The translations under genes were made by a program, and so were the position numbers. 8,600 nt of DNA from a virus (taxonomy: Duplodnaviria > Heunggongvirae > Uroviricota > Caudoviricetes): IMG/VR virus record IMGVR_UViG_2541047679_000008, one strand, 5' to 3'. Every line of letters begins with the position of its first letter. Positions within the stretch are counted from its first letter, which is position 1. The notes below the pieces were generated by a model. It was not told where the DNA came from. It did no database searches and was given only the letters and a program-made list of their open reading frames with translations. Below are positions 98 through 8,600 of this stretch, piece after piece.

Positions 98-673
98 CTA
101 CGGCAGTGCTGGCCATTCAATATCCTGTGCAGTTGACGTATCAACACGGTTCAGCAACACCCGATACTTTTTCCAGGCTTCCAGCAATGAGGTTTCTTCC
201 TCCGTTGCGATTTCCAGATCTACAGCATCCTGAAGTGGCGCAATATGCTCACTGGCTACCTGCATCAGGCTGTTTTTTGTTTCTTCCGCCTCTCGGATCC
301 GGAACAGTTTTTCTGCTTCTGCATCTTTCACCCAGGCTGTGCCGTTCCACTTCTGAAACTCCCCTTCCGGCGATAACCAGGTAACATTTTCCGGTAACGG
401 ACCGAGTTCAGAAATAAATAACGCGTCCCCTGACGCTACGTCATAAACCGTTTTACCCCGATGGTCTTCAACGAGATGCCACGATGCCTTATCACTGTTG
501 AAAACAGCCACAAAGCCAGCAGGAATATCTGGTGGTGCAATATCGGTACTGTTTGCTGGCAGACCTGTATGAGGCGGAATATATGCGTCACCTTCACCAA
601 TAAATTCATTAGTTCCGGCCAGCAGATTATAAATTTTTATGGTCCGTGGTTGTTCACTCATTCTGAATGCCAT
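98..673 (-). CDS. tfa: Tail fibre assembly protein Tfa (lambda Tfa-like chaperone), 191 aa
   Basis: Translated ORF ([61 protein letters not shown]...) matches my memory of lambda Tfa almost residue for residue along its length. The ATG at 673-671 overlaps the stf stop codon (TAATG). A GAGG Shine-Dalgarno (plus-strand CCTC at 682-685) lies 8 nt upstream. Confidence 0.93.
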
Positions 674-3636
674 TATGCAAGCCTCACAATATAGTTAAAT
701 GCGATGTTTTTGACGGTGTTTTCCGCGTTACCAGCAGCGTTAACGGTGATGGTGTGTCCATGTGAACCAATCGCAACGGAGTGCGTATGAGCACCAATAC
801 CGACAGTATGCGCGTGTGCACCTGCAGATGCTGCTGTGCCGGACAGTGAATGGCTATGATTACCATCTGTACTGGTATTCGCTAACCACCCCGTAGACAT
901 ACCTACTGAGCCTTGTACACCCCAGGTATTTTGACCTGAGCTTGTATAACCATATTGATAAGTATCTTTAAAAACACTGGGGTTAAATCGACGGCCATCT
1001 CTATGGCTGTGATTACCAGCTGCATTCGTGCTGCCACTTAAACTATGGGTATGCGCACCAGTGTTATTCGTGGATTTAGTGCCGTAATCAAACGACGATG
1101 TGGTTTTCGTCCCCAAATCCGTACTGGATGCGCTGGCGCTGTGGGTATGCGATTTAATGCCGTCCTGTTCCTGAGACAATACGGCCCGACCACTGGCAGG
1201 TTTGCCCTTAATCGTCCAGCCACGCATATCAGGGATCACGCCTGACGGATAAGCGGCTGCAAGTTTCGGGTATGCAGATTTGTCAAAAGTCTGCCCCTGC
1301 ATCAGGGCATAGCCAGACGGAACGGTATCTGATGGCCACGGGATTGGTGCGCCAGGCGGATAAAACTGCTCTGATGGCGTATAGAGTGAATAAACTGTAC
1401 CGTCCGTTAACCCTTCCGGCTTATTAGCAGAATATGCTGGTGACGTATGAATCGTCACGCTGGCATTACTGGTATAATCCCATTGAATATTTACACCAGT
1501 CGCATAATTTCCGATTGCAACGTAAATATCGTAAGTATCACCAGATGTATTGACCCAGGCAAAATTTGTAAACCCTGTCGATGTGCGCTGCCATAAAGCA
1601 CCAGTAATCCCCTTCGGATTACCATTACCTGCACGTAAAACAAGTTCAGATATACCTGCCTGTTGAGGTGACCCCACGTTAAATCCAGCGCCACCAATCA
1701 ACGTAATTGAAACAACAGAACTCGCCTGTGGCATGGTTACCGTTGCTAATTTGAACCAACCAGCACCACCGCTGAATGACATTGTTGTTGAGTTAAGCGT
1801 ACCAATATCTTTCGGCGTCAGTGTTATATCCGCTGAAAGCGCCTTACCATTCACCTTACGGGCAGAAGGTACCCGACCATTCGCATTGTCATTAGCTGCT
1901 TTCACTGCTTTCGGTGTCGCAGCAAGCGTTTCAGATGTGCTGTTGGTTGCACTACTGAGCTGGACAATTCCTTTTTGTGCTGTCGTAGCGTCCTGTGCGG
2001 TGTATTTCCCGTTAGCCAGGTCATACGCGGCCTTAACGGCTTTTGGCGTTGCCGCCTGTGACTCGGAAGTGCTGTTAGTCGCACTGCTGAGCTGAACTAT
2101 CCCTTTCTGTGCTGTCGTTGCATCCTGTGCGGTGTATTTCCCGTTAGCCAGGTCATACGCGGCCTTAACGGCTTTTGGCGTTGCCGCCTGTGACTCGGAA
2201 GTGCTGTTGGTCGCACTGCTGAGCTGTACTATCCCCTTTTTCGTCGTGCTCGCATCCTCAAGCGCCACGGCGGATGCAATATCCTCTGCCCGTTTTGCCG
2301 CTGTCTCGGCGCGCGTTGCCGCGGATTCCGCCGTACTTTTGCTCTGTGCTGCCGCCGTCGCACTGCCAGCTGCCTCTGTCGCCTTCGTGGATGCTGTCGT
2401 GGCGCTGCCCTTCGCTGCGGACGCTTGTCTGGTCGCCTCATCTTTTGAAGCAGACGCAGATGATGCCGATGACGCCGCCGAACTGGCGGACGATGCGGCA
2501 GCCGTTTTTGAGGATTCTGCGCTGGTTTCCGACGCTTTCGCGTTCGTCTCGGATGTCTTCGCTGCGGAAGCAGACCTCGCTGCTGCGCTGGCCTGTACAG
2601 CGGCTTCGCCAGCCTTCGTTGTGGCTGTTGAAGCGGACGATGCAGCACTTTCTGCCGATTTTCCGGCGGCGGTGGCACTGGCTGAGGCCTGCCCGGCATT
2701 TGTTGACGCGGCGCTGGCAGATGAGGCAGCCGCTGTTTTTGAGTCTGCTGCTGCGGAGGCACTCTGTGCTGCTGCCGTCTCAGAAGACTTAGCGTTCGTC
2801 TCGGACGTTTTTGCCGCCTTCGCGGAATTTCCTGCCGCTGTTGCCGAGGAGGCTGCACTACTGGCGCTCGAGGCTGCGCTCGTTTCTGATGATTTTGCCG
2901 CCTCTTTTGAGGCCGCCGCATCCCGGGCTGAGGTGGCAGCTTCTGACGCCTTCGTGGTCGCGGCGGATGCAGAAGTGGCTGCTGATTGTTGTGACGCTGC
3001 CGCATTCGTTTCTGACGTTTTCGCCGCAGCGGCACTGGTAGCTGCCGCGCTTTTTGAGGACTCTGCAGCAGCAGCACTTTTCGATGCTTCACTGGCCTTT
3101 GTTGATGCCGTTCCTGCGCTGGAAGATGCTGACTGAGCCGACGACGCGGCCTGTCCGGCTGACGTGCTGGCTGCGCGTGCTGAGCCTGCAGCATCAGTCG
3201 CATGGGTTGCCGCCTCACGTGCTGATGTGCCGGCATCGCTGGCTGACTTCTTCGCGGCTGCCGTGTTCTGTGCCACCGCGGACGCGTTACGCGCCACCTC
3301 TTCCACCATCAGTTCAAAACGGCGCAGTGCCTCAGGACGGGCATCATCCTCCGTCATGGCACCGAGAAAATCATTCAGCGTACCGGGTCGGGAATCTTCA
3401 TACACGGTGATGGTCCCGGCATGTGACGGCGGGAATCCCTCCACCAACAGAATAACGCTGTACTGCCCGTACTCAACGTCCATGCTGTAACGCCCGGCTT
3501 CATCCGGATTTTCAGAAGCCACCGTGTTCACCAGTACCGTGGTGCTGTTACGCTTTGCCTTCAGTTGAATAGTGCAGTTCTGTATTGGTTTTCCCGCACC
3601 ATCTTTCAGCACACCTGAGATTTTTACTGCTGCCAT
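673..3636 (-). CDS. stf: Side tail fibre protein Stf, about 987 aa, intact and mosaic
   Basis: N-terminus [31 protein letters not shown]... and C-terminus ...[31 protein letters not shown] match lambda Stf as I recall it. The ORF track begins at a GTG at 3642; I prefer the ATG at 3636 because a GGAG (plus CTCC 3643-3646) then sits 6 nt upstream and the product begins like lambda Stf. Stop codon TAA at 675-673. Contains an Ala/Ser/Thr-rich shaft, a 3x 44-aa repeat, a central block with a [19 protein letters not shown] motif, and a C-terminal HxH-rich region. Confidence 0.9.
676..1155 (-). other. Stf C-terminal His-box region with repeated HxH motifs (SHTHS, GAHTHS, GNHSHR, GNHSHS, GAHAHT, GAHTHS, GSHGHT)
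   Basis: Seen directly in the translation of the last about 160 codons of stf. Equivalent HxH repeats in T4 gp37-type long tail fibre tips coordinate metal ions along the trimer axis. Confidence 0.7.
1360..1875 (-). other. Stf central block of about 172 aa ([45 protein letters not shown]...[12 protein letters not shown]) that I do not recall from lambda Stf; probable module swap
   Basis: Flanked on both sides by lambda-like sequence (44-aa repeat upstream, GAPIPWPSD...[24 protein letters not shown] downstream). The DNA here is visibly more AT-rich than the neighbouring Ala-rich shaft. The VNGKALSxDITLT motif is common in other coliphage tail fibres. Confidence 0.6.
1900..2240. repeat. 132-bp direct tandem repeat inside stf: two near-identical units at about 1971-2102 and 2103-2234, plus a diverged partial unit to about 1900
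   Basis: The string gtgcggtgtatttcccgttagccaggtcatacgcggccttaacggcttttggcgttgccgcctgtgactcggaagtgctgtt occurs at 1995 and again at 2127, a period of 132 bp. It encodes three consecutive copies of [44 protein letters not shown], the third diverged to ...[23 protein letters not shown]. Confidence 0.85.
2240..3310. repeat. Low-complexity, GC-rich Ala/Ser/Thr-rich coding region (Stf shaft) with dispersed imperfect repeats encoding KTSETNA-like motifs
   Basis: The translation is dominated by A/S/T/K/E (for example [38 protein letters not shown]). Similar DNA segments recur around 2541-2570, 2791-2820 and 3003-3030. The region spawns long spurious ORFs in other frames on both strands. Confidence 0.7.
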
Positions 3637-3642
3637 ATCCAC

Positions 3643-3646: not shown

Positions 3647-3674
3647 CAAAAAAGCCCGCCTGAACCGGCGGGCT
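3647..3674 (-). terminator. Rho-independent terminator downstream of lom
   Basis: Perfect 7-8 bp GC-rich stem (plus gcccgcc 3654-3660 and ggcgggc 3667-3673, loop tgaacc), followed on the minus-strand transcript by UUUUUU (plus A-run 3648-3653). It lies 27 nt past the lom stop and immediately before the stf ribosome-binding site. Confidence 0.65.
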
Positions 3675-3700: not shown

Positions 3701-4300
3701 TCAGAACTTATAACCGACACCCACGATGAAACCGTCAGTGCGCCAGTCGCCACTGCCGGAGCCTTCATAAGCAATATCAATGGCCACGGATTCGGTCGGG
3801 TTAAACTGCACGCCAGCTCCCCACGCCAGAGACGTGTTGCTGTGGCGACCGTCATCACTTCCGGTCAGCACATCGTGCTTTTTCCCCTTGTTGTCAGTTA
3901 CGCGAAGATAATCCCCGGAGAAAGTCGACACACGGCTGTAAGCCACACCTGCCATCGCATAAGCACTGAACCATTCATTCACGCGCACAGACGGCCCCGC
4001 CATTACGCTGAACCAGCGGTTACGAACGGAATCTTCATGCCAGCGGGTATCGCTGTAACGGGTCAGCTGGCGATTCTTGTCTCCTGCATAGCTGAATGAC
4101 GTCACCAGCCCCAGTGTGTCCGTAAACTCATAACGGTATTTCACGTTAATCCCGTTCAGATTTTCGCTGCCGGGAGCGTTCGTACGGGCATGAAGATACC
4201 CTGCGCTCAGTGTGGCCTGCTGCTCAGACGCCCATGCAGGCGCACCGGATACGGCCAGACAAATGGCTGCGGACAAAATTGCTGCACAAACTTTACGCAT
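3701..4300 (-). CDS. lom: Lom-family (Ail/Lom/PagC/OmpX) outer-membrane beta-barrel protein, 199 aa, with signal peptide
   Basis: The C-terminal half (...AWGAGVQFNPTESVAIDIAYEGSGSGDWRTDGFIVGVGYKF) matches lambda Lom as I recall it; the N-terminal half differs. N-terminus MRKVCAAILSAAICLAVSGAPAWA looks like a Sec signal peptide with an AxA cleavage site. It ends in the aromatic residue (F) typical of beta-barrel outer-membrane proteins. A GAGAGG Shine-Dalgarno (plus cctctc 4306-4311) precedes the ATG at 4300. Confidence 0.92.
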   Translation of the reverse strand: MRKVCAAILSAAICLAVSGAPAWASEQQATLSAGYLHARTNAPGSENLNGINVKYRYEFTDTLGLVTSFSYAGDKNRQLTRYSDTRWHEDSVRNRWFSVMAGPSVRVNEWFSAYAMAGVAYSRVSTFSGDYLRVTDNKGKKHDVLTGSDDGRHSNTSLAWGAGVQFNPTESVAIDIAYEGSGSGDWRTDGFIVGVGYKF

Positions 4301-4370: not shown

Positions 4371-7300
4371 TCAACGAATACTGATGCCGGAAGCGGCTTT
4401 TTTGGTCACAATCACCGTACAGTCGGTGATATTGCCTGCCCCCTGATTGCCTTTCTGGAAAATCTTAAACTCCAGAGTGACGCTTCCCCTGCCACTCGGC
4501 ATATCAATAACTGCACTGTAACTACCGGGAATGGCCCCTTTAGTTTCTCTGGATGCGATTAATACGCCGTTTTTGCGAACTTCAAAACCATAACCCGTGT
4601 ATCTTGTACCTCCCGGGTTATTACCACTTCCCGGATCGCTATACGCTATTCCGTTAAAGATAATGGGCGGAATAATGATTTGACGGTCAAAGTTATGATC
4701 ATCGCTGATGGTGACTGTAACCGTCCCGTTTGGTGTTTCCGTATTACCCCACGTACCAGCCTGTTTCGGGAATGATTTGGATACAGCTTTAACGAAGTCA
4801 CCTCTGACCTGAGTCGCCTCCAGCATGCCCTTAATCGTACAGTTTTCATTTACCGTGACATTGTTGAGCGTCCCGGAGTTCGCATTCACGTTACCGCTGA
4901 TATCCGCATTTTTCGCCGTCAGCCGCCCGTCCGGTGTCAGGGAAAATGCCGGCGGATTTCCACCGCTGGTAATGGTGGGAGCCGTCAGGCGTTTCAGGAA
5001 CACGTCATTCATGAATATCTGATCACCCTGACCAACAAACATCGGTTTTGTGTTGCCATTTGCAGGATTAATCATCGCAATCCTGTCTGCCGCCAGCAGC
5101 ACCTGACTCTGCATGCCGTCAGGGGTGTTCTCAATACCGGCACCGATACCCGCAATATAAAGGCGTCCGTCCTGCATCTGCTGCAGCTTCACAGCCCACA
5201 TGCTGTTCAGGTTATTATTTGTATCAACCTGAACCTTCTGTATCTGCTGAATTGCCGCACTCTGGTCTTCCAGTTTCTTATTGACGGTCTGTGTTATTTC
5301 ATTGCTGACATCCGTTATGGACGTCCTGATTTCAGTCAGGTCAGGCGCAAGCTGACCGTTATCAATCTGCGTCCACAGCTCCTGAGCCAGATGGGTTTTC
5401 CCTATCTCGCCTTTGAAAAAATCCAGATAGCCTGATGCATCATCACTCGGCTGGCCAACAGCCTCCACGAATGCAGATTTGCCAACGGTGTTCACACTGC
5501 GAACGTAAAAATAATAATCATGGCCCGGTTTGATATTGATACTGGCGGCTATCCAGTACAGTGCCGTACCAAGATAACGCGCGCTGGTTTCAACCTGCCT
5601 GATATCCGCAATCCGCTTTTCTGAGAACCAGAACTCAAACTGTACCGTCGGATCATAAACGGCAAGATGCGGCGTGGCGGTTATCTGAAAATAGCCCGGC
5701 GTCAGCTCAATCCGCGATGGCGCTGCCGGTGCGGCAATCCGGAACGATACCGACGCCGGATCGCCCTGCTGCCCCCACGCATTTACTGCCCGGACTGTCA
5801 GCCTGTAGTTCCCCAGAGCCAGTTGTGTGAAGCGGTAAGTGGTTTCCGTCGTCCGGGCCGTGCTGACCAGCCGCTCACTGCCGTCATCCGCTGTTACGGT
5901 CAGGCGAAGCATGAAACTCACGCCCTTCACCACCTTCGGCGTGTCCCAGCGGGCCAGTACCTGATACTCCCCGCTGTCTGCGGTGACTTCGGCAGTCAGG
6001 TGCTGCACTGCTGGCGGCGTGACACCATTCACCGTGCCGCTCTGGTCGCCGTCAAAGTGCGCCCCGTTATCCACGATAGCTTCTTTTTCCGGTACATGCT
6101 GCACGGCGGTGATAGCATACGTGCCGTCGTCGTTCTCACGGATACTCACACAGCGGAACAGGCGCTGGCGCAGCGTCGGCAGCTTCAGCCCCCATACGCT
6201 GTATCCGGCAACGCCGTCAGGAACACGGCTCACTTTTACCTTCACGCCGTCGGTGACGGACTGGACCTCCACGCTGACCGGATTGCCACTTCCGTCAACC
6301 AGGCTTATCAGCGTGGTACCGGAGGATGGCAGCGTGATTTCACGGTCGAGCGTCAGCGTCCGGGTCTGGCTGTTCACCGCCAGCACGCGCCCGCCGGTGC
6401 TGATCCCCGCATAGTCATCATCGCAGATTTCAATGACATCGCCCGGCACATGGCGAAGCCCTTCCGCACCCACGCTGAAGTCCACGGTCTGCGTTTCCAG
6501 TAGTTCCGTTTTAATCAGCCACAGCCCGGCGCGGTGCGCCTGCCCCCGGCTGGTACAGCCAAAGGCATCCATCTTCGTGACGTTACGACCGTAACGGAGA
6601 ATGGCCTGCGTATCTTCAACAAGCTCTGTCGCCGTCTCCCAGCCGTTATTCGGGTCAATCCAGTTCACCTCAACGGCATTATGGCGGTCCTTCAGGGCGC
6701 TGAAGCTGTAGCGGAACGGCGCGCCATCATCCGGCATCACCACATTACTGCGGTTATAGGTCCACACCTTATCCGACGGTCGGTCCTGCACGAACGTCAG
6801 CGTCTGCCCGTTCCATACCGGCATACAGCGCATCGCCGAGCAGAAATCACTGAGAACATCCCACGCCTTACGCTGTGTGGTCAGGTAGGCATTACAGGTG
6901 ATGCGCGGCTCCGTGCCACCAAAGCCATCCGGCACCGACTGGTCGCAATTCTGGCCGATGACATACAGCGCCCATTTGTCCACATCCGCCGCACCGAGAC
7001 GCTTCCCCATGCCGTAGCGCGGATGGGTCAGCATATCCCACAGACACCAGGCCATGTTGTTGCTGTATGCCGGTTTAAACGTCCCGTCCCAGATACCGCT
7101 GTATTGCCGCGTCTGCGGGTTATAGTTCGATGGCACCTGCAGAATGCGCCCGCGAAGATGATAATTACGGCTCACCTGCTGGCTGCCGAACTGTTCCGAG
7201 TCCACCTGCACGCCGACCAGTGCCGTGTTCGGGTAGCACTGTTTCACATCGATGATTTCGGTGTATGACGACCAGAGCGTTTTGTTCTGCAGCTGGTCTG

Positions 7301-7868
7301 TGGTGCTGTCCGGCGTCATTCTGCGCATCCGGATATTAAACGGGCGCGGCGGCAGGTTATCCACCACCACCGAGGCCAGATACTGCGAGGTGGTTTTGCC
7401 CTTAATGGTGATGTCTTTTTCCGTCACCCAGCCACCATTACGCTGTATCTGAACCAGCAGGCGAACTTCCGACGGATTCCGGTCCCCCTTTGAGGTGGTT
7501 TCCACCAGTGCCTGCACACCGAAGGTAAAGCGCAGTCGGTCGATGTTTGCCGACGTGATGGCGCGGGTGATCGGCGTGTCGTATTTCACTTCCGTACCCA
7601 GCACCGTCTCGGAACCGGAGGATTCAAATCCCTCCGGCGGAGTCTGCTCCTGCTCACCAGCCCGGAACACTACCGTGACACCGGCGATGTTGCTATTCCC
7701 ATCACTGTCCAGCACCGGCGTACTGTTCAGCAGCACGCTTTTTAATCCATCCACCGGACCTTCAATCGGCCCTTCGCTGATGGCATCGATCACACTCAGT
7801 AACTGCGTGGATTTCAGGTTGTCCTTCGCTTCGCGCGGGGTATGCCCCTTACTGCTGCCTTTACCCAT
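4371..7868 (-). CDS. J: Tail tip / central tail fibre host specificity protein J, 1165 aa
   Basis: N-terminus [54 protein letters not shown]... matches lambda J as I recall it. Length is close to lambda J (about 1130 aa). Fibronectin-III-like segments lie at about 5480-6030 ([31 protein letters not shown]...[14 protein letters not shown]). A GGAG Shine-Dalgarno (plus ctcc 7877-7880) sits 8 nt upstream of the ATG at 7868. Confidence 0.95.
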
Positions 7869-7928: not shown

Positions 7929-8600
7929 TCAGCGACCAATCACCACAACCTGACCACCATCCCCTTCGTCTGCCGTGCTGATCTCCTGAGAAACCACCCG
8001 CGACCCCACACGCATTTCACCGTACAGAACAGGCAAAACATTGCCCTGGGCAACCATGTTATCCAGTGAGGAGAAATAGGTGTTCTGCTTACCGTTATCC
8101 GTTGTCTGTGTGCGGGGAGTTCTGGCTTTCGGTGCCAGCATCTGCGCCACACCACCGAGCACCATACTGGCACCGAGAGAAAACAGGATGCCGGTCATAC
8201 CACCGGCCCCAATGGCTGCCCCCCATGCTGCAAGGGTGGCTCCGGCGGTAAAGAATGATCCGGCAATGGCGGCAGCCCCCAGGACAATCTGGAATACGCC
8301 ACCTGACTTGGCCCCGGCGACTCTGGGAACGATATGAATCACAGCGCCGTCAGGCAGAGCCTCATGTAACTGCGCCGTTAACCCGGACGTGCTGACGTCC
8401 CGCCCGGCAATCCGTACCTGATACCAGCCGTCGCTCAGTTTCTGACGAAACGAAGGGAGCTGTGTGGCCAGCGCCCGGATGGCTTCAGCCCCCGTTTTCA
8501 CACGAAGGTCGATGCGGCGGCCAAATCGTTGTAAATCCCCGTAAAGGCAGATGCGCGCCATGCCCGGTGACGCCAGAGGGAGTGTGTGCGTCGCTGCCAT
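7929..8600 (-). CDS. I: Tail tip assembly protein I, 223 aa; apparently complete, with its ATG on the final bases of the window
   Basis: The translation MAATHTLPLASPGMARICLYGDLQRFGRRIDLRVKTGAEAIRALATQLP...VSQEISTADEGDGGQVVVIGR matches lambda gpI in sequence and length as I recall it. It has the ubiquitin-like N-terminal region and hydrophobic Gly/Ala-rich centre typical of gpI. The ribosome-binding site lies outside the window. Confidence 0.92.
   Translation of the reverse strand: MAATHTLPLASPGMARICLYGDLQRFGRRIDLRVKTGAEAIRALATQLPSFRQKLSDGWYQVRIAGRDVSTSGLTAQLHEALPDGAVIHIVPRVAGAKSGGVFQIVLGAAAIAGSFFTAGATLAAWGAAIGAGGMTGILFSLGASMVLGGVAQMLAPKARTPRTQTTDNGKQNTYFSSLDNMVAQGNVLPVLYGEMRVGSRVVSQEISTADEGDGGQVVVIGR

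Follow-up and report, generated by a model that had tools for sequence, protein, structure and literature searches.

Among described tail fibre systems, those closest to the stf and tfa genes found in an 8,600-nucleotide stretch of caudovirus DNA (IMG/VR record IMGVR_UViG_2541047679_000008; the whole stretch is called the window below) are the side tail fibre Stf of phage lambda, StfR of the Rac prophage of Escherichia coli K-12 (b1372), Stf of phage mEp460_ev081 (mEp460) and of the ECOR-derived PhiR phages, the distal half-fibre protein gp37 of T4, and gp37 of the T-even-like phages P896 and vB_EQ1. Laboratory lambda (PaPa) carries a split stf, annotated in J02459 as orf-401 and orf-314, and the Ur-type record KT232076 has one coding sequence of 774 amino acids (aa); an earlier reading of the window, made from its letters alone (the sequence-only reading), had given both points correctly. 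The domain plan of Ur-lambda Stf has been drawn from cryo-electron microscopy and AlphaFold3, with the residues of its proximal coiled coil assigned (PMC12617516). In T4, the needle of gp37 holds seven iron atoms by the histidines of HxH motifs, and all mapped residues in contact with lipopolysaccharide (LPS) or OmpC (933-953) lie between the third and the fourth of these motifs (PMC6957217). The T4/lambda family of receptor-binding proteins was described by Magaziner and Salmond (2022) as having conserved flanks around a variable head (T4 932-965), and one family member with another head, PhiNP ORF6, binds the LPS glucose GlcII (PMC9659904).

It is very probable, in our assessment, that the window holds the stf and tfa genes of a lambda-like E. 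coli prophage and that this stf encodes a nested-mosaic side fibre with a swapped receptor-contacting head. Segment-by-segment comparison shows that the mosaic combines a StfR-type shaft, a portable central block, a lambda-type collar and needle, and a head shared with a virulent T-even-like phage. The gene and its parts are as follows.

673..3636, minus strand: stf coding sequence, 987 aa plus stop (open reading frame list, translation and an exact NCBI protein)
3352..3636, minus strand: tail-attachment domain at the N-terminus (aa 1-95), forming part of the Pfam phage_tail_N match (aa 3-135)
2251..3333, minus strand: proximal coiled-coil shaft rich in Ala, Ser and Thr (aa ~102-462), collinear with the proximal coiled coil of lambda
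2410..2724, minus strand: 105-aa (15-heptad) coiled-coil stretch (aa 305-409), missing in lambda and present in StfR and mEp460
1873..2268, minus strand: three tandem 44-aa Phage_fiber_2 repeats (aa 457-588; PF03406, three stretches, E=9e-55)
1366..1872, minus strand: central shaft block (aa 589-757), unrelated to lambda, portable, a predicted beta-sandwich
1003..1365, minus strand: collar domain and ascending needle strand (aa 758-878; PF07484 Collar), 92% identical to lambda
859..1002, minus strand: head or tip (aa 879-926), a segment replaced in comparison with lambda, T4 and StfR and predicted to be the receptor-contact cassette
676..858, minus strand: descending strand of the needle (aa 927-987), one 9-aa rung shorter than its lambda counterpart (93% identity)

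The gene is read without interruption, as had been claimed: translation from the ATG at 3636 gave no internal stop in 987 codons, and the ribosome site GGAG, 5 nt 5' of this ATG, marks 673-3636 as the right coding sequence, although an upstream GTG at 3642 would give an alternative open reading frame (ORF) of 989 aa (3642..673, minus strand). The reference for the alignment was the 774-aa Ur-lambda Stf (KT232076; UniProt P03764), with mEp460 Stf aligned too, and identities were scored by segment. Residues 1-304 are collinear with lambda 1-303 at 81-89% identity (89% in aa 1-95 and 81-85% in aa 96-304). No lambda counterpart was found for aa 305-409, after which aa 410-500 correspond to lambda 304-394 (74-83%) and aa 501-588 hold two additional Phage_fiber_2 copies. 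The hinge and distal coiled coil of lambda (394-529) are replaced by an unrelated block of 169 aa (aa 589-757; 20% identity in a forced alignment), and the two highly similar segments that end the protein (aa 758-874, 92%; aa 930-987, 93%) enclose one of only 33% (aa 875-929). Identity to lambda thus shifts sharply from module to module, as do the identities to mEp460, StfR, vB_EQ1 and P896, and the breakpoints mapped by this alignment, with segments both inserted and replaced, bear out the description of the protein as mosaic and with a different central block; neither collinearity with lambda Stf nor a missed stop or frameshift was found. The claim that both ends are lambda-like survives for the N-terminal end, which is collinear, and only partly for the C-terminal one.

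The N-terminal domain was identified by a match to PF08400 (E=2e-70, profile positions 2-134 of 134) and by a match to lambda Stf residues 2-94 in the tail structure 9E7M (E=2.7e-50), where 84 of 94 residues are identical. The shaft that follows is collinear with lambda residues 102-393, at 81-83% identity outside a single 105-aa gap in lambda, and is composed of 39% Ala and 24% Ser in aa 120-462.

The protein's C-terminal part proved to be of the gp37 type. Residues 745-987 of the query (243 aa) match the T4 gp37 tip structure 2XGF (E=2.8e-85), and 65.6% identity to T4 gp37 was found by BLASTP over the last 247 aa. Seven HxH motifs are present in the window protein, three in the ascending strand (830, 862 and 876) and four in the descending strand (927, 941, 950 and 959). 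Their spacing (32, 14 | 14, 9, 9) is identical to that of the T4 motifs (883, 915, 929 | 966, 980, 989, 998), whereas lambda has eight, its extra rung being an insertion of 10 aa in the ascending and 9 aa in the descending strand. We infer that the window protein would form a trimer with metal bound at the seven His sites. The window thus shares with T4 gp37 the collar, the motif spacing, a variable head and a chaperone gene downstream, and differs in that the T4 head is an unrelated one of 34 aa and that T4 gp37 forms the distal half-fibre of a myovirus whereas Stf here is a siphovirus side fibre. The head segment is unrelated to that of lambda and corresponds to T4 gp37 932-965, to which the T4 contacts map. 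A specificity determinant has thus been replaced within the C-terminal end that had been taken for lambda-like, and the OmpC specificity of lambda cannot be assumed because the tip is replaced. The sequence-only reading had given the same warning about receptor specificity; the deciding region is the replaced tip and not the central block.

The head cassette was found in both temperate and virulent phages. Six plaque-forming lambdoid phages (mEp460_ev081, PhiR26_1, PhiR34_1, PhiR42_1, PhiR68_2 and Kati) carry it at 100% identity, and gp37 of P896, a virulent T-even-like Gaprivervirus of 170 kb, at 94.5% (52/55 aa). The DNA of the cassette (window 850-1014) is 95.8% identical to that of P896 (L005 4001-4165), whereas the DNA of the collar and needle flanks is only 69-72% identical to P896 and 83-86% identical to lambda; the flanks of the P896 head are themselves T4-like, and the N-terminal 800 aa of its gp37 are unrelated to the window protein. 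A 15-mer, GGTAATCAYAGCCAY, which encodes G-N-H-S-H, is present at both cassette borders. The contrast between cassette and flanks, together with the shared border 15-mer, points to a fairly recent head exchange between temperate and virulent phages. Exchange points in this gene fall on conserved motifs, namely the Phage_fiber_2 repeat, the start of the collar and the GNHSH 'His boxes'. For gp37, swapping at conserved 'His box' motifs was reportedly proposed by Tetart, Desplats and Krisch (J Mol Biol 1998); Haggard-Ljungquist et al. (1992) and Sandmeier (1994) reportedly described mosaic tail fibres in different families of phages, so that the cassette-swap pattern is expected and not new. The papers and phage records searched for mEp460, Kati, P896 and the PhiR phages gave no receptor for this tip.

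For the central block (aa 589-757), sequence searches gave neither a Pfam family nor a solved relative; a profile search of the PDB for a solved structure matched only the flanks of its homologues (Mu S and S16 gp37). Its fold is predicted to be a beta-sandwich. The block has homologues at 85% in JL22, a phage with an annotated stf, at 57-63% in Salmonella phages, at about 41-45% in fibres of the Felix-O1-like type and at about 45% in the gp37 proteins of many T4-like phages, although T4 gp37 itself is without it. In gp37 of vB_EQ1, residues 781-1177 are collinear with window Stf 620-987 at 55% identity, with the block again directly before the collar and followed by needle and head, and the N-terminal 800 aa are unrelated. 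The T4-type gp38 chaperones of P896 and vB_EQ1 have 28-33% identity to the window Tfa. Elsewhere in E. coli, the block is followed by a Mu-S-type C-terminus in protein P0017 and by a different shaft in P0005, and in P0003 it is preceded by the block of mEp460 type. Because the flanking modules differ between the proteins that carry it, the block acts as a portable shaft module, also in T-even gp37 and Mu-S-type fibres. A GC content of 0.42-0.45 was observed in the tip cassette and central block (859-1872), compared with 0.52-0.62 elsewhere in stf, a low value that fits an origin in AT-richer phages.

The shaft is longer than that of lambda in two places. The 105-aa stretch (aa 305-409) is 95-96% identical in K-12 Rac StfR (1120 aa) and mEp460 Stf (1023 aa), and as both carry it, lambda is the short outlier and the long coiled coil the normal form among E. 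coli prophage fibres. The protein had been called expanded, and this holds at 987 against 774 aa, although relative to lambda only. A gapless alignment joins the stretch to aa 193-296 within Stf (score 231, against 165 +/- 6.5 for shuffles). It is thus an internal coiled-coil duplication, and an old one because the best local DNA alignment of the two parts is short (45/61); a recent duplication was ruled out by this short DNA match despite the clear protein signal. At about 0.15 nm per residue, the 105 extra residues would make the rod roughly 15 nm longer. The second difference lies in the Phage_fiber_2 repeats, where the extra motif copies that had been noticed were recovered by both Pfam and Tandem Repeats Finder (132-bp period at 1937-2241). 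The first two copies have near-identical cores; the third is ~73% identical in DNA. One copy was found in lambda and in StfR, two in mEp460, and three in the window and in the allele of E. coli IAI1. The allele of strain GF43 (L009 798-3626) has 942 aa, which is 44 aa or one unit fewer than the 986-aa IAI1 allele, and repeat number therefore varies among otherwise near-identical genes.

The first 493 aligned residues of StfR are 95% identical to the window Stf, including the stretch missing in lambda; its collar and needle are of the same type, TfaR is 96% identical to the window Tfa (lambda Tfa is 95% identical) and a pin-type recombinase gene lies downstream. StfR differs in its single repeat copy, in another central region of ~400 aa and in another head of 36 aa. 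Between mEp460 Stf and the window Stf, identity is 95-100% in the N-terminus, the coiled coil, the collar, the needle and the head (97-100% in the collar-needle-tip region); mEp460 differs in its repeat number (two) and in its central block, which is another one and has a Mu-S-like 'KDQNGADIPGKDTFTKNIGA' junction.

The remaining genes supported by database matches lie on the same strand as stf and in the lambda order I-J-lom-stf-tfa, with all long supported ORFs on the minus strand; the same order was observed in lambda, mEp460, IAI1 and K-12 Rac. The claim of an intact tfa directly downstream was correct, the TAA stop of stf and the ATG of tfa sharing one base at 673.

98..673, minus strand: tfa, tail fibre assembly chaperone, 191 aa (PF02413 Caudo_TAP, E=3e-44)
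3653..3674, minus strand: terminator-like hairpin and T-run between lom and stf (8-bp stem with 7 GC pairs, then TTTTTT)
3701-4300, minus strand: lom, 199 aa (Pfam match)
4371-7868, minus strand: J, 1165 aa (six J-specific Pfam domains)
7929-8600, minus strand: I, 223 aa (Lambda_tail_I)
beyond the left window edge: pinQ, a pin-type serine recombinase gene (L007 8795-9385; L003 19410-20000)

The whole window matches IAI1 and six other complete E. coli genomes at 98.8%. Of 5426 complete E. coli genomes, 1426 have an stf copy over at least 80% of the query length, the highest identity being 99.3%, and full-length copies at 97-99% identity are present in many E. coli genomes; the best copies are annotated 'prophage tail fiber N-terminal domain-containing protein'. 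Searched by itself, the central block occurs in 1298 genomes; the head cassette occurs in 1138, about a fifth of the complete E. coli genomes. One NCBI draft assembly, GCA_000456025.1, was found to contain the exact 987-aa protein. In both genomes whose context was looked at (IAI1 and GCA_000456025.1), the gene lies at the Qin prophage site, which in IAI1 reads ydfJ ... pinQ-tfaQ-stf ... nohA ... cspB. The recombinase gene pinQ directly follows tfa and is convergent to it, ~100 bp past the left window edge. An invertible segment, as in Mu G, P1 C and e14 P with their invertases Gin, Cin and Pin, was considered and rejected, as no gix/pix site, inverted repeat or alternative cassette was found: no match to a gix core or to e14 pix was detected inside stf, and no suitable inverted repeat was detected between stf and the resolvase gene in the GCA_000456025.1 contig. 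The fibre is therefore not switchable, and pinQ is an orphan invertase, as K-12 Qin and Rac also have.

From the solved and mapped homologues, three Stf chains would form one fibre, and by homology with Ur-lambda the virion would carry four of them. The N-domains (aa 1-95) would dock it on the tail above the tip, where, by homology with the Ur-lambda virion, they would form a collar at the gpV-gpM junction (PMC12617516). The Ala/Ser-rich coiled coil (aa ~102-462) would make up the proximal shaft, and the three 44-aa repeats with the beta-rich knob (aa 589-757) would provide the hinge and the distal part of the shaft. With the Tfa chaperone, the C-terminal 230 residues would fold into a gp37-type collar and a six-stranded needle with seven His-coordinated metal sites, and the 48-residue loop at the far end (aa 879-926) would be the head, making a fast and reversible first contact with the cell surface before J binds its own receptor. 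Neither lambda nor T4 has a related head cassette, for which reason recognition of the receptor probably differs from both, and an outer-membrane protein or a sugar of the LPS core is its most likely nature.

A number of observations count against this reading. An unlike head sequence is no proof of a different receptor, because the unrelated heads of lambda (45 aa) and T4 (34 aa) both use OmpC; the central block was modelled with low confidence; and none of the isolated phages in the phage collection has the exact full architecture, the best coverage being 82%. Moreover, the homologous prophage of IAI1 has a frameshifted minor tail gene L (L003 29244-29943), which makes at least this copy defective, and the GCA_000456025.1 contig ends within tail genes, so the prophage element may be defective and the fibre never assembled. 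The first of these points, with the shared collar and needle scaffold, would also suit a fibre that still binds OmpC despite its new head. We consider this rather unlikely, since family members with other heads bind LPS sugars (PhiNP ORF6 and GlcII), the window head is longer (48 aa; StfR has 36 aa, and the window head is unrelated in sequence to the other three) and richer in aromatic residues (7 versus 3-4), and none of the T4 head contact residues (933-953) is alignable to it, so that no conservation of an OmpC-binding tip was observed. It is very doubtful that the central block, rather than the tip, is the second or main receptor site, acting as a lateral glycan knob for O-antigen or LPS core, for example; the T4 contacts map to the head. 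Least probable in our view is a dual arrangement in which the head serves a non-OmpC receptor, the block binds glycan, and the number of repeat copies (2 or 3) tunes the reach through O-antigen or capsule.

The frameshifted L gene of IAI1 and the position at the Qin site next to pinQ would equally fit a relic, in which stf sits in a defective Qin-like prophage, contributes to no virion fibre and is kept by chance or for use by the host. Such a use could be the blocking of adsorption by other phages, as reported for StfE2; a prophage Stf-derived protein has been reported to block T2 adsorption (PMC12529663). This we regard as unlikely, given that stf, tfa, lom, J and I are all intact in the window and that the matches listed are full-length copies annotated in RefSeq as ordinary coding genes. 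Nor is there a pix/gix site or inverted repeat from which a chimeric product could be made, and the strong hairpin upstream suggests that stf would be expressed only from an antiterminated late transcript. The reading of stf as a mosaic side fibre with a swapped head, predicted to be functional, is the one that we retain.

Fibre genes of this type have already been described, together with their modular evolution and structural plan, and the allele is widespread and annotated; the discovery value of an ordinary lambda-type fibre gene from a common E. coli prophage is accordingly small. Its practical value lies in the fact that lambda Stf chimeras now retarget DNA-delivery particles. Working engineered lambda Stf fusions have been joined at R393 and S528 (PMC11338833), and the natural breakpoints, one after the first repeat (lambda R393) and one at the collar start (lambda S528), coincide with these junctions. 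A natural fibre with breakpoints at the engineered junctions and a tip flanked by His boxes is thus a ready template for swaps, and its head cassette is a common one, carried by several culturable lambdoid phages and by roughly one in five complete E. coli genomes.

Some further observations were made on the genes of the window. The hairpin between lom and stf lies only ~10 nt ahead of the stf ribosome site; in lambda, the Q-antiterminated late transcript reads through such terminator sites. The C-terminal receptor-binding part of J (4371-4800, the last ~130 aa) is far less lambda-like than the region preceding it: the last 249 aa are 54% identical to lambda J overall, with the differences lying mostly beyond residue 120 of this stretch, so that the central fibre, too, cannot be assumed to use LamB. 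A scan of Stf and Tfa against NCBIfam returned no family at E<=0.01. Two ORFs overlap the coiled-coil region in other frames (2132-3136, plus strand, 334 aa; 2229-3236, minus strand, 335 aa); they are taken as shadows of the GCN-rich Ala coding (GC 0.62), and nothing was found to support either as a gene. Finally, the window protein begins with MAAVK (3628-3636), compared with MAVK in lambda, StfR and mEp460, and this one extra GCA codon explains the length of 987 aa here versus the 986 aa of the IAI1 allele.

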